Part shown: one piece after another, positions 6,354-32,662 of the stretch | How the letters are laid out: each line of letters begins with the position of its first letter | How positions within the stretch are numbered: position 1 is the stretch's first letter | DNA from: a phage | DNA: 33,238 bases | Reading direction: 5' to 3' (one strand) | Assembly: GCA_018175035.1 (NCBI GenBank) | Contig: GCA_018175035.1_4099.2 | The notes under the pieces: model-generated | The model's database searches: none | What the model was told of the DNA's origin: nothing | Seen by the model: only the letters and a program-made list of their open reading frames with translations | Position numbers and translations under genes: made by a program

Positions 6354-6617
6354 ATGAATATTAAAGATAGATTACAATTACTATACACTATTGAACAGGC
6401 TGCTTTTGAACTTGTTAATAAAATCTCCGAAGAACTTCCCAAAGGAACTATAGTTCGTGTAATTGAGAGGGATTATGAATCTGGAGAAATTGAAGAACTA
6501 GTACTAACCGTGAATAAAGTAACATACTATGAATCTGAGTTGGCTATCCAATGTATATCGGAAGATGGTAAAATATACTATTATGACACTGGTGTAGATA
6601 TAGAGGTAATAAAATGA
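6354..6617 (+). CDS. Hypothetical small protein
   Basis: ATG 6354 directly after upstream TAA, GGTGGAAA upstream; track start 6309 would overlap upstream gene by 44 nt. Confidence 0.5.
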   Translation: MNIKDRLQLLYTIEQAAFELVNKISEELPKGTIVRVIERDYESGEIEELVLTVNKVTYYESELAIQCISEDGKIYYYDTGVDIEVIK

Positions 6618-7756
6618 CCCTTTTACAAATATATGAAGATTTAATGCACTTATGTAATACAAACGATGCGTTTTTTTATGTGGATCATAAAAGTCCTGCT
6701 GGTGGTACGTATCGTGTATTCAGTTATCGTCTAGCATCATACACTGATTTCATGCAACCAAATGCGTTGGAAACCCGTGGCTCTATGTGGGAAATTGATG
6801 AAGAAGGTGACATGATACGTTGTGCAGCACGTACAATGAAAAAGTTCTTCAATGCTTACGAGAATCCTGCTACAATGTTCCCTGCTAACACCACATGCGA
6901 TGACATTGCGGTAGTGATGCCTAAGTTGGATGGTTCGATTATCAGTACTTATCGTGATAATGATGGTGAGATTCGTTGTAAATCACATACTGCATTGTAT
7001 TCTGACCATGCGATTAACAGTACTCGACTTATTAACGAGAACCAGAATTTGTACCAGTACATCGACGAAGCGGAACGTTTAGGTTACACAGTTAATATGG
7101 AGTATACAAGCCCAGAGTACCGAATTGTATTACCATATCAGGTAGAACAACTGTTTGTACTGAACGTTCGACATCGTGTGAGTGGTGAGTTGCTATGTGG
7201 TAAAGCACTACGTGATAAGTTTCCATGTCTTGCACAGTACAGTACTAATATGACTGGAAAAGATATTCATCACACTTTTCCGGTACGAAATACCTTCCGT
7301 GAAAGCGTGGAGGAAGTTCATAAAATGCTTGATATTGAGGGTTTTGTGTGCATCCTAAATAATGGGACAATGTGTAAAATAAAGACTGACTGGTACAGTT
7401 CATTACATCTTACAAAAGATAGTATTATTATTGATTCTCATTTATATGAAGCAGTATTAAATGGTTCAAGTGATGATTTAAAACAATTGTTCAGTACTGA
7501 TGAATATGCTATGCAAAAGATATTAAGAATGGAACAATTGGTATTTTCGTGCTATAATGCATTACAAGATGAAGTAGAAAGCTTCGTCAAGGAACACAAG
7601 CACTTGGAGCGAAAGGAATTCGCAATGAAGGTTCAGGAGTGTTTAACTAATGAACTGAATCGTCAGGGCTTGGCCTTTGCAATGTATAACAATAAGAAAG
7701 TTGATTACAAAGAGACTCTTATAAAATACATGAAAATTGTACTAAAGGATTTTTAG
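6614..7756 (+). CDS. rnlA: RNA ligase 1 (T4 Rnl1 / gp63 family)
   Basis: N-terminal region closely resembles T4 Rnl1 as I recall it (FFY..D...G.TYR.FSY..ASY.D...P.ALE.RG...E.D....R...R.M.KFFN..ENP.TM); KxDGS nucleotidyl-lysine motif (PKLDGS); ~380 aa. Confidence 0.9.
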   Translation: MTLLQIYEDLMHLCNTNDAFFYVDHKSPAGGTYRVFSYRLASYTDFMQPNALETRGSMWEIDEEGDMIRCAARTMKKFFNAYENPATMFPANTTCDDIAVVMPKLDGSIISTYRDNDGEIRCKSHTALYSDHAINSTRLINENQNLYQYIDEAERLGYTVNMEYTSPEYRIVLPYQVEQLFVLNVRHRVSGELLCGKALRDKFPCLAQYSTNMTGKDIHHTFPVRNTFRESVEEVHKMLDIEGFVCILNNGTMCKIKTDWYSSLHLTKDSIIIDSHLYEAVLNGSSDDLKQLFSTDEYAMQKILRMEQLVFSCYNALQDEVESFVKEHKHLERKEFAMKVQECLTNELNRQGLAFAMYNNKKVDYKETLIKYMKIVLKDF

Positions 7757-21338: not shown

Positions 21339-21834
21339 TACTAATATCTGGTTAGATAACATAATCAAGACATTAGAATTAATTAAACTTACATTACAAA
21401 AAACTACAGATATTGAAATTAATATTAAAAAAGAAATATTAAACTATTATCATAGAAACAACTATAGCACGTTTATCTCTAAATTAATTTATGGATTATA
21501 TGATATTGAAGATATTTGCATCGGTTACAGTACTGGTATTTGCTTCACTGTTAATGGTTTAAAAAATGATTTAAATTTCAGACTTTCCGATGAAGAGCAA
21601 GATTTTCGTAGATTTTGTGATAATATTATGGATACAGATAAAATTACATTTGTTATTGAATTAAATCAAACGTGGTCTACATATGCAGATAAACCATTTG
21701 AAATTAATGAAACAGATGTGTTAAACTATATTCGAGTTATGAAAATTCATGATTTGTGTAAAAACGCATTGTTAAGTATTGGAGCTTATAATGAAACATA
21801 CGACTTGGTTGAAGATAGCAGAAGTAGTTGCTGA
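21310..21834 (+). CDS. Hypothetical protein (very AT-rich gene)
   Basis: ATG ORF overlapping both neighbours (29 nt upstream, 44 nt downstream). Confidence 0.45.
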   Translation: MKYTHLSIDDTNIWLDNIIKTLELIKLTLQKTTDIEINIKKEILNYYHRNNYSTFISKLIYGLYDIEDICIGYSTGICFTVNGLKNDLNFRLSDEEQDFRRFCDNIMDTDKITFVIELNQTWSTYADKPFEINETDVLNYIRVMKIHDLCKNALLSIGAYNETYDLVEDSRSSC

Positions 21835-22270
21835 GGAAAGTAAATGTATTTCACAAAAAGTTGGTTGTGTTATTGTTAAAAATAACCGAGTATTGAGTAC
21901 TGGATACAATGGTACTCCATCAAAACAACCAAATTGCTGTGATGTGAATCAACACTTAGTCAATGATGGGCGTTTTCAAGACTGGGTTAGTGATGAAGCA
22001 AAGCATGAACATCATGAGTGGAGTAATATTCATGAAATCCATGCTGAAATGAACGCTTTACTCTATAGTTCTCCTACTGAACGTCAAGGTGCTACTCTTT
22101 ACACAACACTACAACCATGTTATACTTGTTCTAAGTTGATCGCAGGTAGTGGGATTTCACGTGTAATTTATCACAAAAGTTATCCACGAACACCACCTGA
22201 AGCGATTAAAGTACTGGAAGATGCTGGGATTATTGTTAACTGCATTTATGACAAGGGTATGAATCAATGA
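21791..22270 (+). CDS. cd: Deoxycytidylate (dCMP) deaminase
   Basis: Zinc-deaminase motifs HAEMNAL and PCYTCSKLI; N-terminus ...ESKC.S.KVGCVIVKNNRVLSTGYNG resembles T4 Cd as I recall it; ATG after GGAG SD (track start 21779 is TTG). Confidence 0.85.
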   Translation: MKHTTWLKIAEVVAEESKCISQKVGCVIVKNNRVLSTGYNGTPSKQPNCCDVNQHLVNDGRFQDWVSDEAKHEHHEWSNIHEIHAEMNALLYSSPTERQGATLYTTLQPCYTCSKLIAGSGISRVIYHKSYPRTPPEAIKVLEDAGIIVNCIYDKGMNQ

Positions 22271-23237: not shown

Positions 23238-23846
23238 ATGAAAAGACTATGGCTTGAGGTAGTACAAGCAGTAATGCTTCTGATGTTGATAAATTTTCCA
23301 GCCAGTGCTGGTATTGAAAGTAAAAATGTGATAAAGTACAATCCTGAAACACGTAATGTATATTTCATCTCAGATATTACGGATGGGTCACTAAAGCGTA
23401 TGATGGAGTTGTATGATAAAGAACACTATGATACCATTACCATCACATCGCCAGGTGGTGATTTTGATGCTGGGATTAAAATGGCAAACTTCGTTAGAGA
23501 CAATGGTATAAATTTAATTGTTTCTAGGTATTGCAACTCAGCATGTACTGTGGTATTCTTCAGTGTAGCTTTTGAAAAGCGATACATGATAAATCGCTCA
23601 GTACTGGGTCTTCATAACATTTCGATTAAAAGTAATGTTACTGATGGTGATAATTCATTTGTGTCTGTAAGACAGCTATCAACTTTTACCGAAGAAATGG
23701 CAACAAAGGTAGGTTTCCTTTTTTCACTATATGCAGCAAATGGAATCCCACCAGAAGTTCTATTTAGAGTTAGTCGTTCTCGTGGTGAAGATGTTGTAAT
23801 ATTAACAAAACCAGAACTGGTTTTTTACGGTTCAGTCAAACAATAA
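23238..23846 (+). CDS. Secreted (signal-peptide) ClpP/S49-like serine peptidase-fold protein
   Basis: N-terminal hydrophobic signal (LLMLINFPASAG); ClpP-like SPGGDFDAG, then CNSAC and GLHN in ClpP Ser/His positions; AAGGA SD. Confidence 0.55.
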   Translation: MKRLWLEVVQAVMLLMLINFPASAGIESKNVIKYNPETRNVYFISDITDGSLKRMMELYDKEHYDTITITSPGGDFDAGIKMANFVRDNGINLIVSRYCNSACTVVFFSVAFEKRYMINRSVLGLHNISIKSNVTDGDNSFVSVRQLSTFTEEMATKVGFLFSLYAANGIPPEVLFRVSRSRGEDVVILTKPELVFYGSVKQ

Positions 23847-23916: not shown

Positions 23917-24177
23917 ATGACAAACATCCAAAACTTGACATCTATTATTTTTTATGCTACTGTAGTAATGTATGCTACAGTTATTTTTCTAACAGTTTTC
24001 ATTTACAAAGATTATCGTAATGGCTTTATTGATCCAACTACAATGAAGTTCAATTCAAAATTCGAAGCAATAATTTATTATGTACTATCAACTTCATACT
24101 TGGTGTGCCTAATGTTGTTAGGAGCACTAATTTATATCTTATACACAACATTATTTGCAATTGGAGCTATTTTATGA
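23917..24177 (+). CDS. Small integral membrane protein (two TM helices)
   Basis: ATG ORF; hydrophobic segments. Confidence 0.5.
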   Translation: MTNIQNLTSIIFYATVVMYATVIFLTVFIYKDYRNGFIDPTTMKFNSKFEAIIYYVLSTSYLVCLMLLGALIYILYTTLFAIGAIL

Positions 24178-24767
24178 CCTGTATTATTGCACACACTGAC
24201 GGAGTAAGTTCTTTTATTGCTGGGGATAAGTTAGGAAGCAATGGATTTACAAAAACTGTTCAAACTGAGCCAAAGGTATTCGAGAAAGAATTTATCAAGT
24301 TACATGATGATGGACTAACTAGAACTAAAGAAGTAATGGCATTGGGTTATACTACATCATTTCGTATGGGTCAGTTGTTAAATTATAACCTTAATTTACC
24401 TGAACAAGATGCTAGTCAAACATTTTCACAATATTTGGTTCTTAAAGTTATTCCAATCATTCGTCAAATGTTTAAAGAAGAATGGGGTGCACGAGATGCA
24501 TCACAAGATGTAGGTGGTGGACAATTTATCATTCTCCACAATCATACAATCTATGAAGTTCAAGAAGACTTTTCAGTACTACAACCTAAAACAAGAATTA
24601 CCGCAGTAGGTAGTGGGACATATCATGCAATTGCAGCAATGCAAGCATATATTGAAGTTGAGAACGAATCTAAAAAACCACTACACGAACGTATCAAATC
24701 AATTTTTAAAATTGTTAGTGATAATGTAACAAGCGTAAGCGAAGAGTTTGATGTTTTAAAATATTAA
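24174..24767 (+). CDS. HslV/proteasome beta-subunit-like N-terminal-nucleophile hydrolase
   Basis: ATG 24174 (ATGA overlap, GGAG SD); N-terminus MTCIIAHTDG...IAGD parallels HslV MTTIVSV...IAGD with Thr at position 2; C-terminal AVGSGTYHAIAA parallels HslV AIGSGG.YA.AAA. Confidence 0.7.
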   Translation: MTCIIAHTDGVSSFIAGDKLGSNGFTKTVQTEPKVFEKEFIKLHDDGLTRTKEVMALGYTTSFRMGQLLNYNLNLPEQDASQTFSQYLVLKVIPIIRQMFKEEWGARDASQDVGGGQFIILHNHTIYEVQEDFSVLQPKTRITAVGSGTYHAIAAMQAYIEVENESKKPLHERIKSIFKIVSDNVTSVSEEFDVLKY

Positions 24768-24989: not shown

Positions 24990-24998
24990 GGATTGAAT

Positions 24999-25751
24999 AT
25001 GATATCAGAAAAATTTATAAGCAATGAAGGTAAAAAGCGATTACTGATTATATCAGGTGCAGGACTTTCTGTTGAAAGTGGTATGGAACCTTTTCGATTT
25101 GATGATGGTTTGTGGGATACATTTAAAATTAATGATGTATGTAACATTGCTAGTTTAACTACGAAATATCACGTTGTTCATTCCTTCTATAATACATTAC
25201 GTGTAAAATTGGGACAATGCGAACCCAATGCAATGCATTATTTTATAAAATCGTTAGAAGATCAATATGGTGATTGCTTCCTTCATATGACTTCTAACAT
25301 GGACGATCTTTATACTCGTATTGGTGGTCATGAGCTTAAACTTCATGGAAACTTGTGCGAAGTTATTGAAAATTATAGTATCAATTCCGATGATTATAAT
25401 GTTATTAACTGCGGATACGAACCATACATACCAAAACATGATGTTTTTGCTAAACCAAATGTAGTAATGATTGGAGAATATCATCGTTATGTTGATGGTA
25501 TTCGCTTACCAATTTACGAAGAACGAAATAATGTGTTGAAATCTCTTAATGAAAATGATACAGTTATTGTAATTGGTAGTAGCGATACAGTACTGGTATG
25601 GTCGAGATTAGCAGCAGCATTACCATGTTATAGTGTTAATGTTAACATTCGTAAAAATGATAATGATTTTTTGTTTAATGAAAAAGTTATCAAGCCAGCA
25701 ACCAAAGCAATACCGCATCTAGAGACTATAATTAAGGAACGTATGAAATGA
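24999..25751 (+). CDS. Sir2 (sirtuin) family protein, NAD-dependent deacylase / ADP-ribosyltransferase fold
   Basis: Sir2 motifs GAGLSVESGMEPFR (GAGxS...SGxPxFR), TSNMDDL (T/QNxDxL), LHGN, VVMIGE, VIVIGSS; no obvious 4-Cys zinc ribbon; ATG after AAGGA (track start 24993 is TTG). Confidence 0.75.
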   Translation: MISEKFISNEGKKRLLIISGAGLSVESGMEPFRFDDGLWDTFKINDVCNIASLTTKYHVVHSFYNTLRVKLGQCEPNAMHYFIKSLEDQYGDCFLHMTSNMDDLYTRIGGHELKLHGNLCEVIENYSINSDDYNVINCGYEPYIPKHDVFAKPNVVMIGEYHRYVDGIRLPIYEERNNVLKSLNENDTVIVIGSSDTVLVWSRLAAALPCYSVNVNIRKNDNDFLFNEKVIKPATKAIPHLETIIKERMK

Positions 25752-26299
25752 GTGTTAAAGAAGTTCCCTTTGGTGAATATGGCACACGTGCAAATTTTGT
25801 ATTTTGTTATTTCTTTGCAAGAAAATGCAACCCTTACAAAAACTATGAGTTGAATGATATACCAGAAGTAAATTTAGTATTACTGCAATTACGATGGGAT
25901 GGTCTTCTTGGTGGATGTGGTGGAACCGTAGAAAGTACTGATATCTCACTAGAAGATGCGTTGCGTCGTGAAGTTCAAGAAGAAATGGATTACAATATTT
26001 TTGTTTCCCATCTTCGACCACTCAAAACTTTTGAAATTTACCCAGGTGCAAACAGTCACAGTTTTAGCTATGAAGTAACCTATGACGAGTTGAAACACAT
26101 TAGAGATGGATACACTAATGCTAAACATGCAAGTGCAGAAGTTGCTGGTGTAAATTTATGTCATATTTCTCGTTATTCTAAGGGACAAAATCGAGAAGCG
26201 GGATATAATAATCTTATGACACAGAACTTCATCGGTACAGCAAAACAAGAATTGGAGTATCTGGTTCAAAAAGAAAACTTACTAATTAGTTATCTATAG
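25748..26299 (+). CDS. Putative Nudix-fold hydrolase (divergent Nudix box)
   Basis: ATGA overlap with Sir2 gene; GGCGGTVE...LRREVQEEMDY resembles Nudix box Gx5Ex7REUxEExGU with a 4-residue insertion and D in place of the last G. Confidence 0.45.
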   Translation: MSVKEVPFGEYGTRANFVFCYFFARKCNPYKNYELNDIPEVNLVLLQLRWDGLLGGCGGTVESTDISLEDALRREVQEEMDYNIFVSHLRPLKTFEIYPGANSHSFSYEVTYDELKHIRDGYTNAKHASAEVAGVNLCHISRYSKGQNREAGYNNLMTQNFIGTAKQELEYLVQKENLLISYL

Positions 26300-31464: not shown

Positions 31465-32079
31465 ATGACAACATCTGAAAAGTACTGGTGGATTTTGGGT
31501 CATCCTAAATTCATAAACAAAGATATGGTTCCAGCTAGGATTGATATAGAACCTCATGATGTGTGTCCAATGACAAATCGAATTGAAGATTTCAAAGCAT
31601 TGAATACAAAGACTCAATTTTGGGTAGAATTTCTTTCACCAATGTATATTGAGCAAGACGACGAATGGGTACAAGCACATGATTATCAATTGGATTGTGG
31701 TGGTGATACGTATGAAGAGGCCATTGATGAATTATACAAAAATGTGCTAAGAACATATGGTGATTACACCCAACAAGAAGCGGACGATGAATTTAATAAG
31801 ATCCATGTAGCTATTTCGACATCATCAATTTATAATCCCACTAAAACAGTTTGGGAGGAACGACACAGTTGGTGTTCATGTGTAATCGATGAAGAAACCA
31901 AAGAAAAAATCATCGATGACATAAAAAATTTAAAAAATACAATCCAAGCCTTGCGTGCATTCATAAAGTCTTGTACAATAGAAGAACAGCAAGAGGCAAA
32001 GATACATTTGGAGAGTGAAGAATGTAAACTTTGGGTTCTAGAAAAATCACTTGAAAAGGGTATAGACTTAGACTTATGA
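31465..32079 (+). CDS. Hypothetical protein (acidic, 204 aa)
   Basis: ATG with GGGGA SD. Confidence 0.6.
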   Translation: MTTSEKYWWILGHPKFINKDMVPARIDIEPHDVCPMTNRIEDFKALNTKTQFWVEFLSPMYIEQDDEWVQAHDYQLDCGGDTYEEAIDELYKNVLRTYGDYTQQEADDEFNKIHVAISTSSIYNPTKTVWEERHSWCSCVIDEETKEKIIDDIKNLKNTIQALRAFIKSCTIEEQQEAKIHLESEECKLWVLEKSLEKGIDLDL

Positions 32080-32444
32080 ATAGTAAATTGGAGAAACTTG
32101 TTGAAGAATTACGCCGGATGCCACCTATTGAGCAAGTAGGGAACTACAAGCGGTATCGTGTGATTGCTCGTGCACTGGATAAAAAAGGTCGAGTACTGGC
32201 AACTCGCACAAATTCTTATACACAGACTCACCCAGTACAGAAGGGTTTCGCCATTCGTGCTGGGCGACCGCAAGGTGAGTTTCTTCATGCTGAAATTTCA
32301 TGTTTACTGGCTGCTCGTGCTGATGTTCATACTTTACTGATTGCACGGATAAGTAAAGATGGAATTCCTGTTCCGGCTAAACCATGTGAAATTTGCTCAT
32401 TAGCAATAAAAGAATATGGGGTGAAAGAGATTATCCACACATGA
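32076..32444 (+). CDS. Small zinc-dependent deaminase-fold protein (CDA / dCMP-deaminase / TadA-like), second deaminase in the window
   Basis: HAEISCL and PCEICSLAI about 30 residues apart; N-terminal YRVIARALDKKGRVLATRTN like the deaminase substrate-loop region; ATGA overlap. Confidence 0.65.
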   Translation: MNSKLEKLVEELRRMPPIEQVGNYKRYRVIARALDKKGRVLATRTNSYTQTHPVQKGFAIRAGRPQGEFLHAEISCLLAARADVHTLLIARISKDGIPVPAKPCEICSLAIKEYGVKEIIHT

Positions 32445-32662
32445 AAATTGAAAGATATGCTAAGCATACTGTTGGGTGTGTAAATGATATATTCTATTAT
32501 TATATTTTTGCACCTGAACTACGTTTTCAAATCACAACATACAATGATGGCAGATTTAAAGATACAAACTTCCTCATAACCGACTTAGCAAAGTATGCGA
32601 ATACAGAACATTTTAATCATTTAGTATTTGTGTACTGTATACCAAACCCAAATAAAAAGTAG
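32441..32662 (+). CDS. Hypothetical small protein
   Basis: ATG 32441 overlapping deaminase stop (ATGA), chosen inside track ORF 32393..32662. Confidence 0.4.
   Translation: MKIERYAKHTVGCVNDIFYYYIFAPELRFQITTYNDGRFKDTNFLITDLAKYANTEHFNHLVFVYCIPNPNKK

Follow-up and report, generated by a model that had tools for sequence, protein, structure and literature searches.

In the zinc deaminase fold, a zinc ion held by one His and two Cys residues activates a water molecule, and a Glu residue shuttles the proton. Several described systems with this fold come near to the gene studied here. The viral dCD enzymes of cyanophage S-TIM5 (PDB 4p9c) and PBCV-1 (bi-DCD, PDB 7fh4) are small, single-zinc and stand-alone, with the motifs HAE and PCxxC and an Asn at the end of strand 2. 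T4 Cd and ComEB (PDB 1vq2, 2hvv), which belong to superfamily PF00383, have in addition a second zinc site and a region beyond strand 4; the residues of T4 Cd that bind deoxycytidine are N40, A105, E106 and P131 (PMC12697855), and the insert in dCMP deaminases has been read as a cap limiting access to soluble substrates (Iyer et al. 2011). The tetrameric CDA and blasticidin-S deaminase (BSD) are small as well, about 120-135 aa, and the Bd3614-like deaminases, with a phyletic range of Bdellovibrio and chlorophytes, are described as having no strand 5 (Iyer et al. 2011). As for the number of such enzymes in one phage, CBB has been stated to have two CMP/dCMP deaminases (PMC5259590).

Below we report the analysis of a 122-aa deaminase gene in a window of phage DNA, by which we mean the whole 33,238-nucleotide stretch analysed (contig GCA_018175035.1_4099.2). 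The window comes from an Asteriusvirus, that is, a 121Q/PBECO4-type, Rak2-like jumbo phage of about 350 kb to which CBB is related; the "T4-like" label given to it in the first-pass annotation is wrong. The features discussed are the following.

21791..22270, + strand: canonical dCMP deaminase of the ComEB/T4-Cd type (cd; 159 aa from the ATG at 21791), with NxxP, HAEMNA, TLYTT and a Tyr after strand 4
31465..32079, + strand: 204-aa ORF upstream of the small deaminase, function unassigned (phrog_16370), with its stop codon in an ATGA overlap with the start codon of the deaminase
32076..32444, + strand: 122-aa minimal zinc deaminase gene with ATG start, orthologue of 121Q gp490
32211..32240, + strand: N46 to Q55 stretch of the family motif N-S-Y-x-K-T-H-P-x-Q, from conservation in both alignments
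32286..32294, + strand: codons of H71-A72-E73 (zinc ligand His and catalytic Glu, start of helix 2), read directly and conserved in the alignments
32346..32348, + strand: codon of R91, the Arg of strand 3 that is peculiar to the family and nearly invariant in both alignments
32382..32396, + strand: codons of P103-C104-E105-I106-C107 (two Cys zinc ligands, start of helix 3), read directly and invariant in the alignments

The 122-aa gene is shown to be genuine and under purifying selection, with a deaminase fold and intact catalytic residues. Comparison with three orthologues gives dN/dS of 0.03-0.13, the Pfam model PF00383 is matched with 28.9 bits (E 1.1e-6), which passes the cut-off of 25, and the predicted structure is a confident deaminase core (pLDDT 92.8). 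Its predicted elements are helix 1 (aa 3-14), strand 1 (28-34), strand 2 (40-45), a family-specific insert (47-69) with a helix at 53-61, helix 2 bearing HAE (72-80), strand 3 (86-92), helix 3 bearing PCxxC (105-114) and strand 4 (118-121), which is followed by the stop codon. All parts of the core are present, namely H/C-x-E on helix 2, P-C-x-x-C on helix 3 and the beta-alpha-beta arrangement, while the model has neither helix 4 nor strand 5, strand 4 directly preceding the end; only 15 residues lie beyond CxxC, compared with 46 in the canonical cd of the window. The 122-aa sequence by itself found nothing meaningful in a PDB search, and deaminases were reached only by family profiles. The earlier claim of a second, minimal zinc-deaminase-fold gene beside cd holds, with HAE at residues 71-73 and PCEIC at 103-107 and with both genes verified; the zinc ligands and the catalytic Glu, whose possible misplacement had been raised against it, stand at the correct positions.

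The canonical cd is recognised by all of PF00383 (78 bits), PHROG 174 (5e-62) and the ComEB model TIGR02571 (5e-19); its ORF may alternatively start at 21779. Against PHROG 174, the small deaminase scores 51 bits and cd 212 bits, and the two proteins align with 23% identity over 98 residues (E 0.003). This identity, together with the lack of nearly all dCMP-deaminase/ComE synapomorphies, agrees with the first-pass view that the small deaminase differs from cd. Two deaminases are already annotated in relatives (121Q gp490; CDS0227 and CDS0250 of E9.1), orthologues of the 122-aa protein being named "dCMP deaminase" in public records, and the small deaminase is kept alongside cd in every Rak2-like locus examined. 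In a related Asteriusvirus genome of 352 kb, the loose pattern [HC][AS]E-x15-60-[PS]CxxC is matched by 2 of 1359 stop-to-stop ORFs of at least 60 aa, and the two are the small deaminase and the canonical cd. A third deaminase in Asteriusvirus is rejected by this whole-genome scan, and since it gives only two deaminase-fold ORFs, the "tRNA-specific adenosine deaminase" mentioned in the Sharanji paper is most likely one of the two.

Compared with the viral dCD enzymes, the 122-aa protein is alike in being small, single-zinc and stand-alone and in having HAE, PCxxC and the Asn at the end of strand 2, and 4p9c is the top PDB profile match of its family (1.7e-11). However, helix 4 and the parallel strand 5 are missing, in place of which long-form relatives have an antiparallel hairpin, and it shows no HAExNA, no GxNG/NxxP and no Tyr after strand 4, having instead its own T-H-P-x-Q, the strand-3 Arg and a longer loop leading from strand 3 to PCxxC. 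With T4 Cd and ComEB it has in common the superfamily PF00383, the predicted chemistry and probably the same dUMP pathway, but not the clade synapomorphies, the second zinc site or the region beyond strand 4. The helix-4 division with parallel strand 5, tested as a mark of that clade, is absent, and the failure of the synapomorphies, including the Tyr after strand 4, indicates that the small deaminase lacks the region C-terminal to strand 4 of the canonical enzymes. At the residue level, N46-S-Y-T, HAE-I-S-C, T86-L-L-I-A and the ending IIHT stand against NGTP, HAEMNA, TLYTT and VIYHKSY in cd. The insert at aa 47-69 is similar in length and position to the dCMP-deaminase/ComE insert, but has one helix and no Cys, so that this is a resemblance only.

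The conservation of these features was studied in two alignments, A1 with 22 homologues (down to 34% identity) and A2 with 150 family representatives. H71, A72, E73, P103, C104 and C107 are all invariant in A1; in A2 this holds for E73, C104 and C107, and the conservation of H71 and A72 is at least 90%. N46 and P53 do not vary in A1 either, where H52, Q55 and G115, the last at the start of strand 4, each reach at least 90%, and N46, H52 and P53 each reach at least 90% in A2. The family has motifs of its own, N-S-Y-x-K-T-H-P-x-Q and the Arg on strand 3, while PF00383 is matched by all 150 representatives (best 3e-16). By motif position, N46, A72, E73 and P103 match N40, A105, E106 and P131 of T4 Cd, and all four are invariant in A1. 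On the whole, the minimal-deaminase family consists of more than 1000 sequence clusters, almost all of them viral; outside viruses, one restrictive search pattern gave three matches in 185,579 species genomes, all on short MAG contigs. The long-form relatives end in a CDA-like beta-hairpin (strand 4, turn, strand 5), and a tail of this type is present in 38 of 167 members. Our analysis shows that the family stands apart from the canonical dCMP-deaminase clade. We found no assay of any member in the searchable literature, and for phiKZ gp260 (PHIKZ260), a member from phiKZ, only a TSS mention, a study of the early infection phase having assigned to it its own primary TSS (PMC8244752).

As to the gene neighbourhood, the 204-aa ORF lies directly upstream of the deaminase in 13 of 13 Rak2-like loci surveyed and is absent from this place in other lineages; the two genes may be translationally coupled. 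A Pfam search of the deaminase's neighbours in the window gave no domains, and their PHROG matches are all of unknown function. Six gene contexts of the family contain mostly small hypothetical genes with no conserved partner, and among the contexts examined there is no toxin, immunity or secretion-domain architecture, nor are defence or anti-defence genes consistently adjacent. RNR genes (NrdA/B, NrdD) or glutaredoxin are found within 5 kb in several of 27 deaminase lineages surveyed, and in the 121Q locus the deaminase is followed, about 1.7 kb further downstream, by the start of nrdD. The link to RNR genes is thus only partial, and many large phages have such genes; both points are counted against the main reading given below. 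A ThyA-like gene lies within 5 kb in 1 of 80 family loci.

It is of interest to see how phages with this family obtain thymine nucleotides. The Asteriusvirus genome has 34% GC. Its thymidylate synthase and that of a phiKZ-like phage carry Asn177 (E. coli numbering), the dUMP-specific residue, as well as Cys146, and an E. coli Dut probe detected no homologue in either genome. In the phiKZ-like genome OQ031493.1, which has 36.5% GC and encodes ThyA, the sole deaminase-fold ORF found among 858 ORFs is the family member, the record covering 95% of the genome, so that a second deaminase could sit in the missing 5%. In the complete genome of Aeromonas phage 4L372XY (35.7% GC), it is the sole deaminase-fold ORF among 544; this record annotates thymidylate synthase and RNR genes, and the annotated thymidylate synthase is not matched by an E. 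coli ThyA probe. The hosts of both phages are presumably GC-rich.

Our main reading, to which we give a probability of about 0.55, is that the 122-aa protein is a predicted active zinc hydrolytic deaminase of a phage-restricted minimal clade, converting C to U in cytosine (deoxy)nucleotides for the supply of dTTP. Zinc would be held by His71, Cys104 and Cys107, and the proton would be shuttled by Glu73. The substrate would be free dCMP, or possibly dCDP or dCTP, and the product would go to the phage's own dUMP-specific thymidylate synthase, so that the nucleotide pool would be pushed towards T for a genome of 34% GC in a host which we take to have about 51% GC. The insert at aa 47-69 probably caps the pocket, and R91 may bind phosphate or substrate. 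What the enzyme acts on, the capping by the insert, the oligomeric state and how the work is shared with cd are parts that we infer. The intact catalytic set across the more than 1000 clusters and the dN/dS of 0.03-0.13 are counted for this reading, as are the match to the deoxycytidine-binding positions of T4 Cd, the occurrence as sole deaminase-fold gene found in two other phages, Asn177 and Cys146 of the thymidylate synthases with no Dut homologue detected, the RNR and glutaredoxin neighbours, the TSS of PHIKZ260 and the almost purely viral distribution. If the protein were a mere duplicate of cd, one would have to explain why all Rak2-like phages keep both; in these phages the two enzymes probably prefer different phosphorylation states, or are regulated or timed differently, and a narrow substrate difference (dCTP or dCDP as against dCMP, or CMP) is possible. 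Three observations are counted on the other side: nearly all dCMP-deaminase/ComE synapomorphies are missing, including the Tyr after strand 4; the TadA-like enzyme 6l2m is matched by the family profile with 3e-9, close to the dCD values; and fold searches do not separate the substrate classes.

Among the alternatives, we consider it possible, though clearly less probable than dTTP supply by a cytosine nucleotide deaminase, that the family with THPxQ and the strand-3 Arg is a separate phage-born lineage, with dCD-like motifs on a CDA-like hairpin or truncated four-strand scaffold, whose substrate is unlike that of canonical Cd, for example dCTP/dCDP or a defence-made or modified cytosine nucleotide. 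Deamination of dCTP or dCDP would be a direct source of dUTP in phages lacking Dut.

A deaminase acting on a non-canonical or unwanted cytosine nucleotide and not on bulk dCMP, such as 5-methyl-dCMP from Dcm-methylated host DNA or a chain-terminating CTP analogue made by a defence system, or one that sanitises the pool, seems to us doubtful. Such a role would explain the coexistence with cd in all Rak2-like loci examined, and the protein has conserved pocket motifs of its own in THPxQ and R91. In addition, annotated phage dCMP deaminases of PF00383 have been found to prefer 5mC or 5hmC nucleotides (10.1101/2024.12.05.627091) or dCTP (PMC12697855), showing that annotation is a poor guide to substrate. 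However, being the sole deaminase-fold gene found in the phiKZ-like and Aeromonas phages fits a core role and not a niche one, defence and anti-defence genes are not constant neighbours, the thymidylate synthase carries Asn177, and a thymidylate synthase gene is linked in just the one locus of 80, unlike in the modification-associated class, where the NEB study places 70% of the deaminases on contigs with predicted cytosine modification within 3 kb of such a gene (10.1101/2024.12.05.627091). The same Asn177 and the same 1/80 linkage, with the absence of reported hydroxymethylase and glucosyltransferase genes in the RaK2 paper and the CBB paper (PMC5259590), leave the relation to DNA modification suggested in the first-pass annotation unsupported, and a hypermodification role was rejected. 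Since an ordinary nucleotide-metabolism function is already labelled in public records, the window gene is no pointer to hypermodified DNA.

It seems rather unlikely that the protein deaminates a free base or nucleoside for salvage, be it cytidine/deoxycytidine as in CDA or cytosine, guanine or another heterocycle. The fold offers some ground for it, in that the strand 4 to strand 5 hairpin of the long-form relatives has the topology of CDA/BSD, the loop from strand 3 to PCxxC reads in the alignment as longer and CDA-like, CDA/BSD structures give the longest alignments (104-107 residues, against 94-97 for dCD/TadA), and Foldseek places blasticidin-S deaminase and CDA beside dCD with E of about 1e-3. 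The synapomorphies of CDA are nevertheless absent: the motif is PCEICS and not PCxxCR, the minority type HAE stands in place of the usual CAE, and the Glu at the end of strand 5 is missing with strand 5 itself. The CDA model TIGR01354 gives 13.7 bits against a cut-off of 113.65, and profiles favour dCD over CDA (1ux1) by about 7 orders (1.7e-11 vs 1.4e-4). Moreover, the near-invariant Arg and a Lys beside the zinc site suggest that the ligand is an anion (phosphate), and it is RNR genes, not nucleoside salvage genes, that occur as neighbours.

An RNA-editing deaminase acting on tRNA or rRNA, as a divergent offshoot of the TadA/Bd3614 branch with its strand-5-less forms, is in our view quite improbable. 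The family profile matches 6l2m, from Mycoplasma, as noted above; several members are called "TadA" by JGI pipelines; and an unusual tRNA-Ser(ACU) with A34 occurs in a related Asteriusvirus. The Bd3614-like deaminases are a precedent for the missing strand 5, and weak Bd3614-deam (PF14439) matches appear in 23 of 150 members, though not in the window protein, with MafB19-deam matches in 91 of 150. Both are non-specific, since the window's canonical cd also matches MafB19-deam (1e-15) and Bd3614-deam. In contrast to Bd3614, the 122-aa protein has HAEIS and not HAExN, CEIC without Met, and a strand 4 ending in H-T and not in an acidic residue; a single N-terminal helix precedes its core, where Bd3614 has a globular domain, and its family ranges over phages. 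In contrast to TadA, it has KPCEIC in place of EPCxMC and a large insert where TadA is open, it lacks both the basic residue that follows strand 4 and the two additional C-terminal helices with their conserved E and F, and the NCBIfam TadA models do not match it. The usual substrate, tRNA-Arg(ACG), is supplied by the host, and the phage has none. I34 on tRNA-Ser(ACU) would misread AGA, and the occurrence of the family is not correlated with that of phage tRNAs bearing A34, which are lacking in the phiKZ-like and Aeromonas phages. The TadA-like role and the tRNA substrate, which the first-pass annotation had entertained, are both unlikely on these grounds.

Finally, a polynucleotide cytosine deaminase related to MafB19 toxins, attacking ssDNA or dsDNA of host or competitor or serving as a mutator, is highly improbable: although some MafB19-clade features are present (an Asn that ends strand 2, HxE, a Gly that opens strand 4 and, in the long forms, the hairpin division; Iyer et al.), PF14437 is matched by those 91 of 150 members and some phage "dCMP deaminases" act on ssDNA in vitro, the window protein itself has 12.3 bits against PF14437, below the cut-off of 27, it has neither a toxin architecture nor a secretion domain, no neighbour resembles an immunity gene, its insert probably closes over the pocket, and an uninhibited enzyme would damage the phage's own genome.

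Our analysis shows that the names "dCMP deaminase" and "TadA" are being carried onto a large phage-only clade without the defining features of either family. If the family is the separate lineage considered above, with a substrate unlike that of canonical Cd, jumbo phages keeping both enzymes would run two non-redundant routes from C to U, and these proteins, at about 100-122 aa, would rank with the smallest active deaminase scaffolds in nature, which could be of interest for enzyme engineers. A deaminase that works with four strands and no strand 5 would be useful as a minimal scaffold. In model phages such as phiKZ, a member of the clade is the sole gene of this fold found. Knowledge of the substrate would complete the map of dTTP supply in nucleus-forming and other AT-rich jumbo phages.

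The window is 96% identical to the Asteriusvirus jumbo coliphages 121Q, PBECO4, phAPEC6 and slurp01 (about 350 kb), which are Rak2-like phages; as T4 is only a distant relative of these phages according to the RaK2 paper (PMC3622015), the "T4-like" framing of the first-pass annotation is abandoned. Throughout positions 1-33238 almost every long ORF is on the + strand, the GC skew is positive (0.11-0.19) and the G+C content is 30-36%. The genes discussed here are as follows.

6614-7756, + strand, RNA ligase (named from the annotation of the orthologous region in phage E9.1)
8853-9785, + strand, polynucleotide kinase (named likewise)
21791-22270, + strand, cd, the canonical dCMP deaminase
23238-23846, + strand, protease (named from the E9.1 annotation)
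24105-24767, + strand, adjoining HslV-family peptidase (named from the E9.1 annotation)
24993-25751, + strand, Sir2-like gene, overlapping the Nudix hydrolase gene by 4 nt
25748-26299, + strand, Nudix hydrolase of the Nudt16-like type (PF22327, 8e-19)
31465-32079, + strand, ORF of unassigned type, 204 aa (phrog_16370, no Pfam hit)
32076-32444, + strand, small deaminase, ATG start, 122 aa

The small deaminase has HAE at residues 71-73 and PCEIC at residues 103-107, with 15 residues remaining after CxxC. The stop of the 204-aa ORF runs into its start codon (ATGA), and its own stop into the ATG of the next gene, showing that it lies within a tightly packed co-directional array. It passes the cut-off of Pfam PF00383 (28.9 bits against 25) and matches PHROG 174 at 3e-13, and the AF2 model, for which 22 homologues were used, has high confidence scores (pLDDT 92.8, pTM 0.85). 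When the 1359 ORFs of a related phage, complete in sequence, are scanned for a loose HxE...PCxxC pattern, only the small deaminase and cd match. The zinc ligands and the Glu are invariant across homologues with identity as low as 34%, and essentially so among 150 distant family representatives, while dN/dS against three orthologues is 0.03-0.13. Overall, the gene is more than a chance motif match, and our analysis confirms that a second deaminase-fold gene accompanies cd, with its zinc ligands and catalytic Glu correctly placed. This observation is correct, yet not new, since databases and publications already include the gene alongside cd: its orthologues in 121Q (gp490) and E9.1 are both labelled "dCMP deaminase", a name that E9.1 also gives to cd, and two CMP/dCMP deaminases feeding thymidylate synthase are stated for the related phage CBB (PMC5259590).

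The predicted order in the AF2 model is helix 1, strand 1, strand 2, an insert, helix 2 (HAE) and strand 3, then a longish loop, helix 3 (PCxxC), strand 4 and the end of the protein, with helix 4 and strand 5 absent. The insert has 22 residues with a helix at 53-61; that of the S-TIM5 dCD is of the same length, and in TadA the matching segment is short. The family profile matches PDB 4p9c (S-TIM5 dCD, E 1.7e-11), 6l2m (Mycoplasma TadA-like, 3e-9), 2hvv (S. mutans dCD, 1e-7), 1vq2 (T4 Cd, 4e-6) and 1ux1 (CDA, 1.4e-4), so that the sequence affinities point in the direction opposite to the architecture. We then compared the protein with published synapomorphies. None of the dCMP-deaminase/ComE sequence motifs (NxxP, HAExNA, TxxxT, Tyr after strand 4) is present, unlike in the window's cd, which has them all, and the zinc-bearing bihelical insert and helix 4 of that group are both missing. 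The TadA and CDA sets are failed as well, and only generic features are common with the MafB19 and Bd3614 clades. We therefore regard the small deaminase as part of a distinct phage clade of the superfamily rather than of Cd/ComEB; in this phage clade strand 5 is predicted to be lost or to form a hairpin.

At E<=1e-10 an exhaustive profile search recovers 1059 clusters formed at 50% identity, with members nearly all of 100-140 aa. Isolated phages having the family are Rak2-like jumbo phages of Escherichia, Klebsiella, Erwinia, Yersinia and Xanthomonas, phiKZ-like phages (PHIKZ260), Aeromonas Plateaulakevirus, T4-like cyanophages and Salicola phage SCTP-2. When 185,579 species genomes are scanned with one restrictive pattern, only three match, each on a short MAG contig, which roughly indicates a viral family. 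Its members have the consensus N-S-Y-x-K-T-H-P-x-Q ... L-H-A-E-I ... (strand 3) R ... A-K-P-C-x-x-C ... G-(I/V)-K-x-(I/V)-x-(Y/H)-T. On helix 2, H-S-E replaces H-A-E in a phiKZ-like phage (12729-13238), in Aeromonas phage 4L372XY (17947-18342) and in several metagenomic members, showing that this clade has no strict need of the Ala that in T4 Cd contacts the base.

The circumstantial lines favour, with a probability of roughly 0.55, a dC-nucleotide deaminase for dTTP supply, which would convert a cytosine (deoxy)nucleotide, dCMP and dCTP being candidates, to dUMP or dUTP for thymidylate synthesis, and which in Rak2-like phages would share this work with cd. No assay of any family member is found in the searchable literature, and recent studies show that annotation is no guide to the phosphorylation-state and 5-substituent specificity of phage "dCMP deaminases" (10.1101/2024.12.05.627091; PMC12697855). 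In the phiKZ-like phage (OQ031493.1, 95% of the genome scanned, 36.5% GC) and in 4L372XY (complete genome, 35.7% GC) the family member is the only deaminase-fold ORF found, and no canonical cd is found in either by HMM, phmmer or motif. The hosts of both are GC-rich. A thymidylate synthase gene is detected in the former with an E. coli ThyA probe, and is annotated in the latter, but without a match to the probe. AT-rich phages with GC-rich hosts and a thymidylate synthase are the setting where C-to-T conversion is most needed. The thymidylate synthases of the Asteriusvirus and the phiKZ-like phage carry Asn177 together with Cys146, which marks them as dUMP-specific, and an E. coli Dut probe detects no homologue in either genome. 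In T4 Cd the dC moiety is bound by N40, A105, E106 and P131 (PMC12697855), corresponding by motif position to N46, A72, E73 and P103, all four invariant in the alignment with 22 homologues. In addition, a study that covered the early infection phase maps a separate primary TSS to PHIKZ260 (PMC8244752).

The neighbouring genes are a further circumstantial line. Within 5 kb of the deaminase, in 80 IMG/VR loci representing 27 deaminase lineages (70% identity), NrdA/NrdB occurs in 3-4 lineages, NrdD in three and glutaredoxin in four; at the orthologous locus of 121Q, nrdD-nrdG lies about 1.7 kb downstream. The phrog_16370 ORF is directly upstream in 13 of 13 Rak2-like loci, and is not adjacent in the other phage lineages surveyed. 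In one group of metagenomic phages (loci L026-L038, L050 and L059) a recurring set of genes follows the deaminase at a distance of 1-5 kb downstream; by eye, it comprises a putative ATP-grasp gene, two of amidoligase type and a class-II glutamine amidotransferase.

Less probable is a distinct substrate, for example dCTP, a modified nucleotide or one that derives from defence. Deamination of free bases and nucleosides, or of DNA, has only small probabilities: the CDA-like hairpin and MafB19-like features would fit, but the profile scores are against it, the neighbourhoods examined have no toxin context, and the pocket is probably capped. Editing of tRNA, also suggested at first, is unlikely. 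Outside the window, the related Asteriusvirus OR844650.1 does have an unusual tRNA-Ser(ACU) with A34 (32413-32504 of its own locus, minus strand), whose anticodon loop, CUACUAA, differs at one position from that of E. coli tRNA-Arg(ACG); apart from tRNA-Arg, bacteria rarely have tRNAs with A34. However, an inosine at this site would lead to misreading of AGA, none of the seven tRNAs in the related Asteriusvirus genome is Arg(ACG), and TadA features are missing. As A34 tRNAs are absent from the phiKZ-like and Aeromonas phages, the family as a whole shows no such link. Finally, the proposed relation to DNA hypermodification is not supported: the Asteriusvirus thymidylate synthase has the dUMP-specific Asn177, a ThyA-like neighbour occurs in one of the 80 loci, against thymidylate synthase within 3 kb of 70% of deaminases on predicted modified-cytosine contigs (NEB study, 10.1101/2024.12.05.627091), and neither RaK2 nor CBB is reported to have genes for hmC or glucosylation (PMC3622015, PMC5259590).

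Elsewhere in the window, the overlapping Sir2-like and Nudix genes hint at a function in NAD or ADP-ribose metabolism, or in anti-defence. The RNA ligase and polynucleotide kinase, by their E9.1 names, are the T4-type tRNA-repair pair countering anticodon nucleases. Beside the protease and HslV-family genes, we note that an HslV-like gene pair and a PhoH-like gene are likewise present in 4L372XY.

In the searchable literature we find no description of a phage-only clade with strand 5 lost or hairpin-forming that is the sole deaminase-fold gene found in the scanned genomes of a phiKZ-like and an Aeromonas phage. The recognition of this large and minimal clade, which is mislabelled as Cd or TadA, is possibly new.
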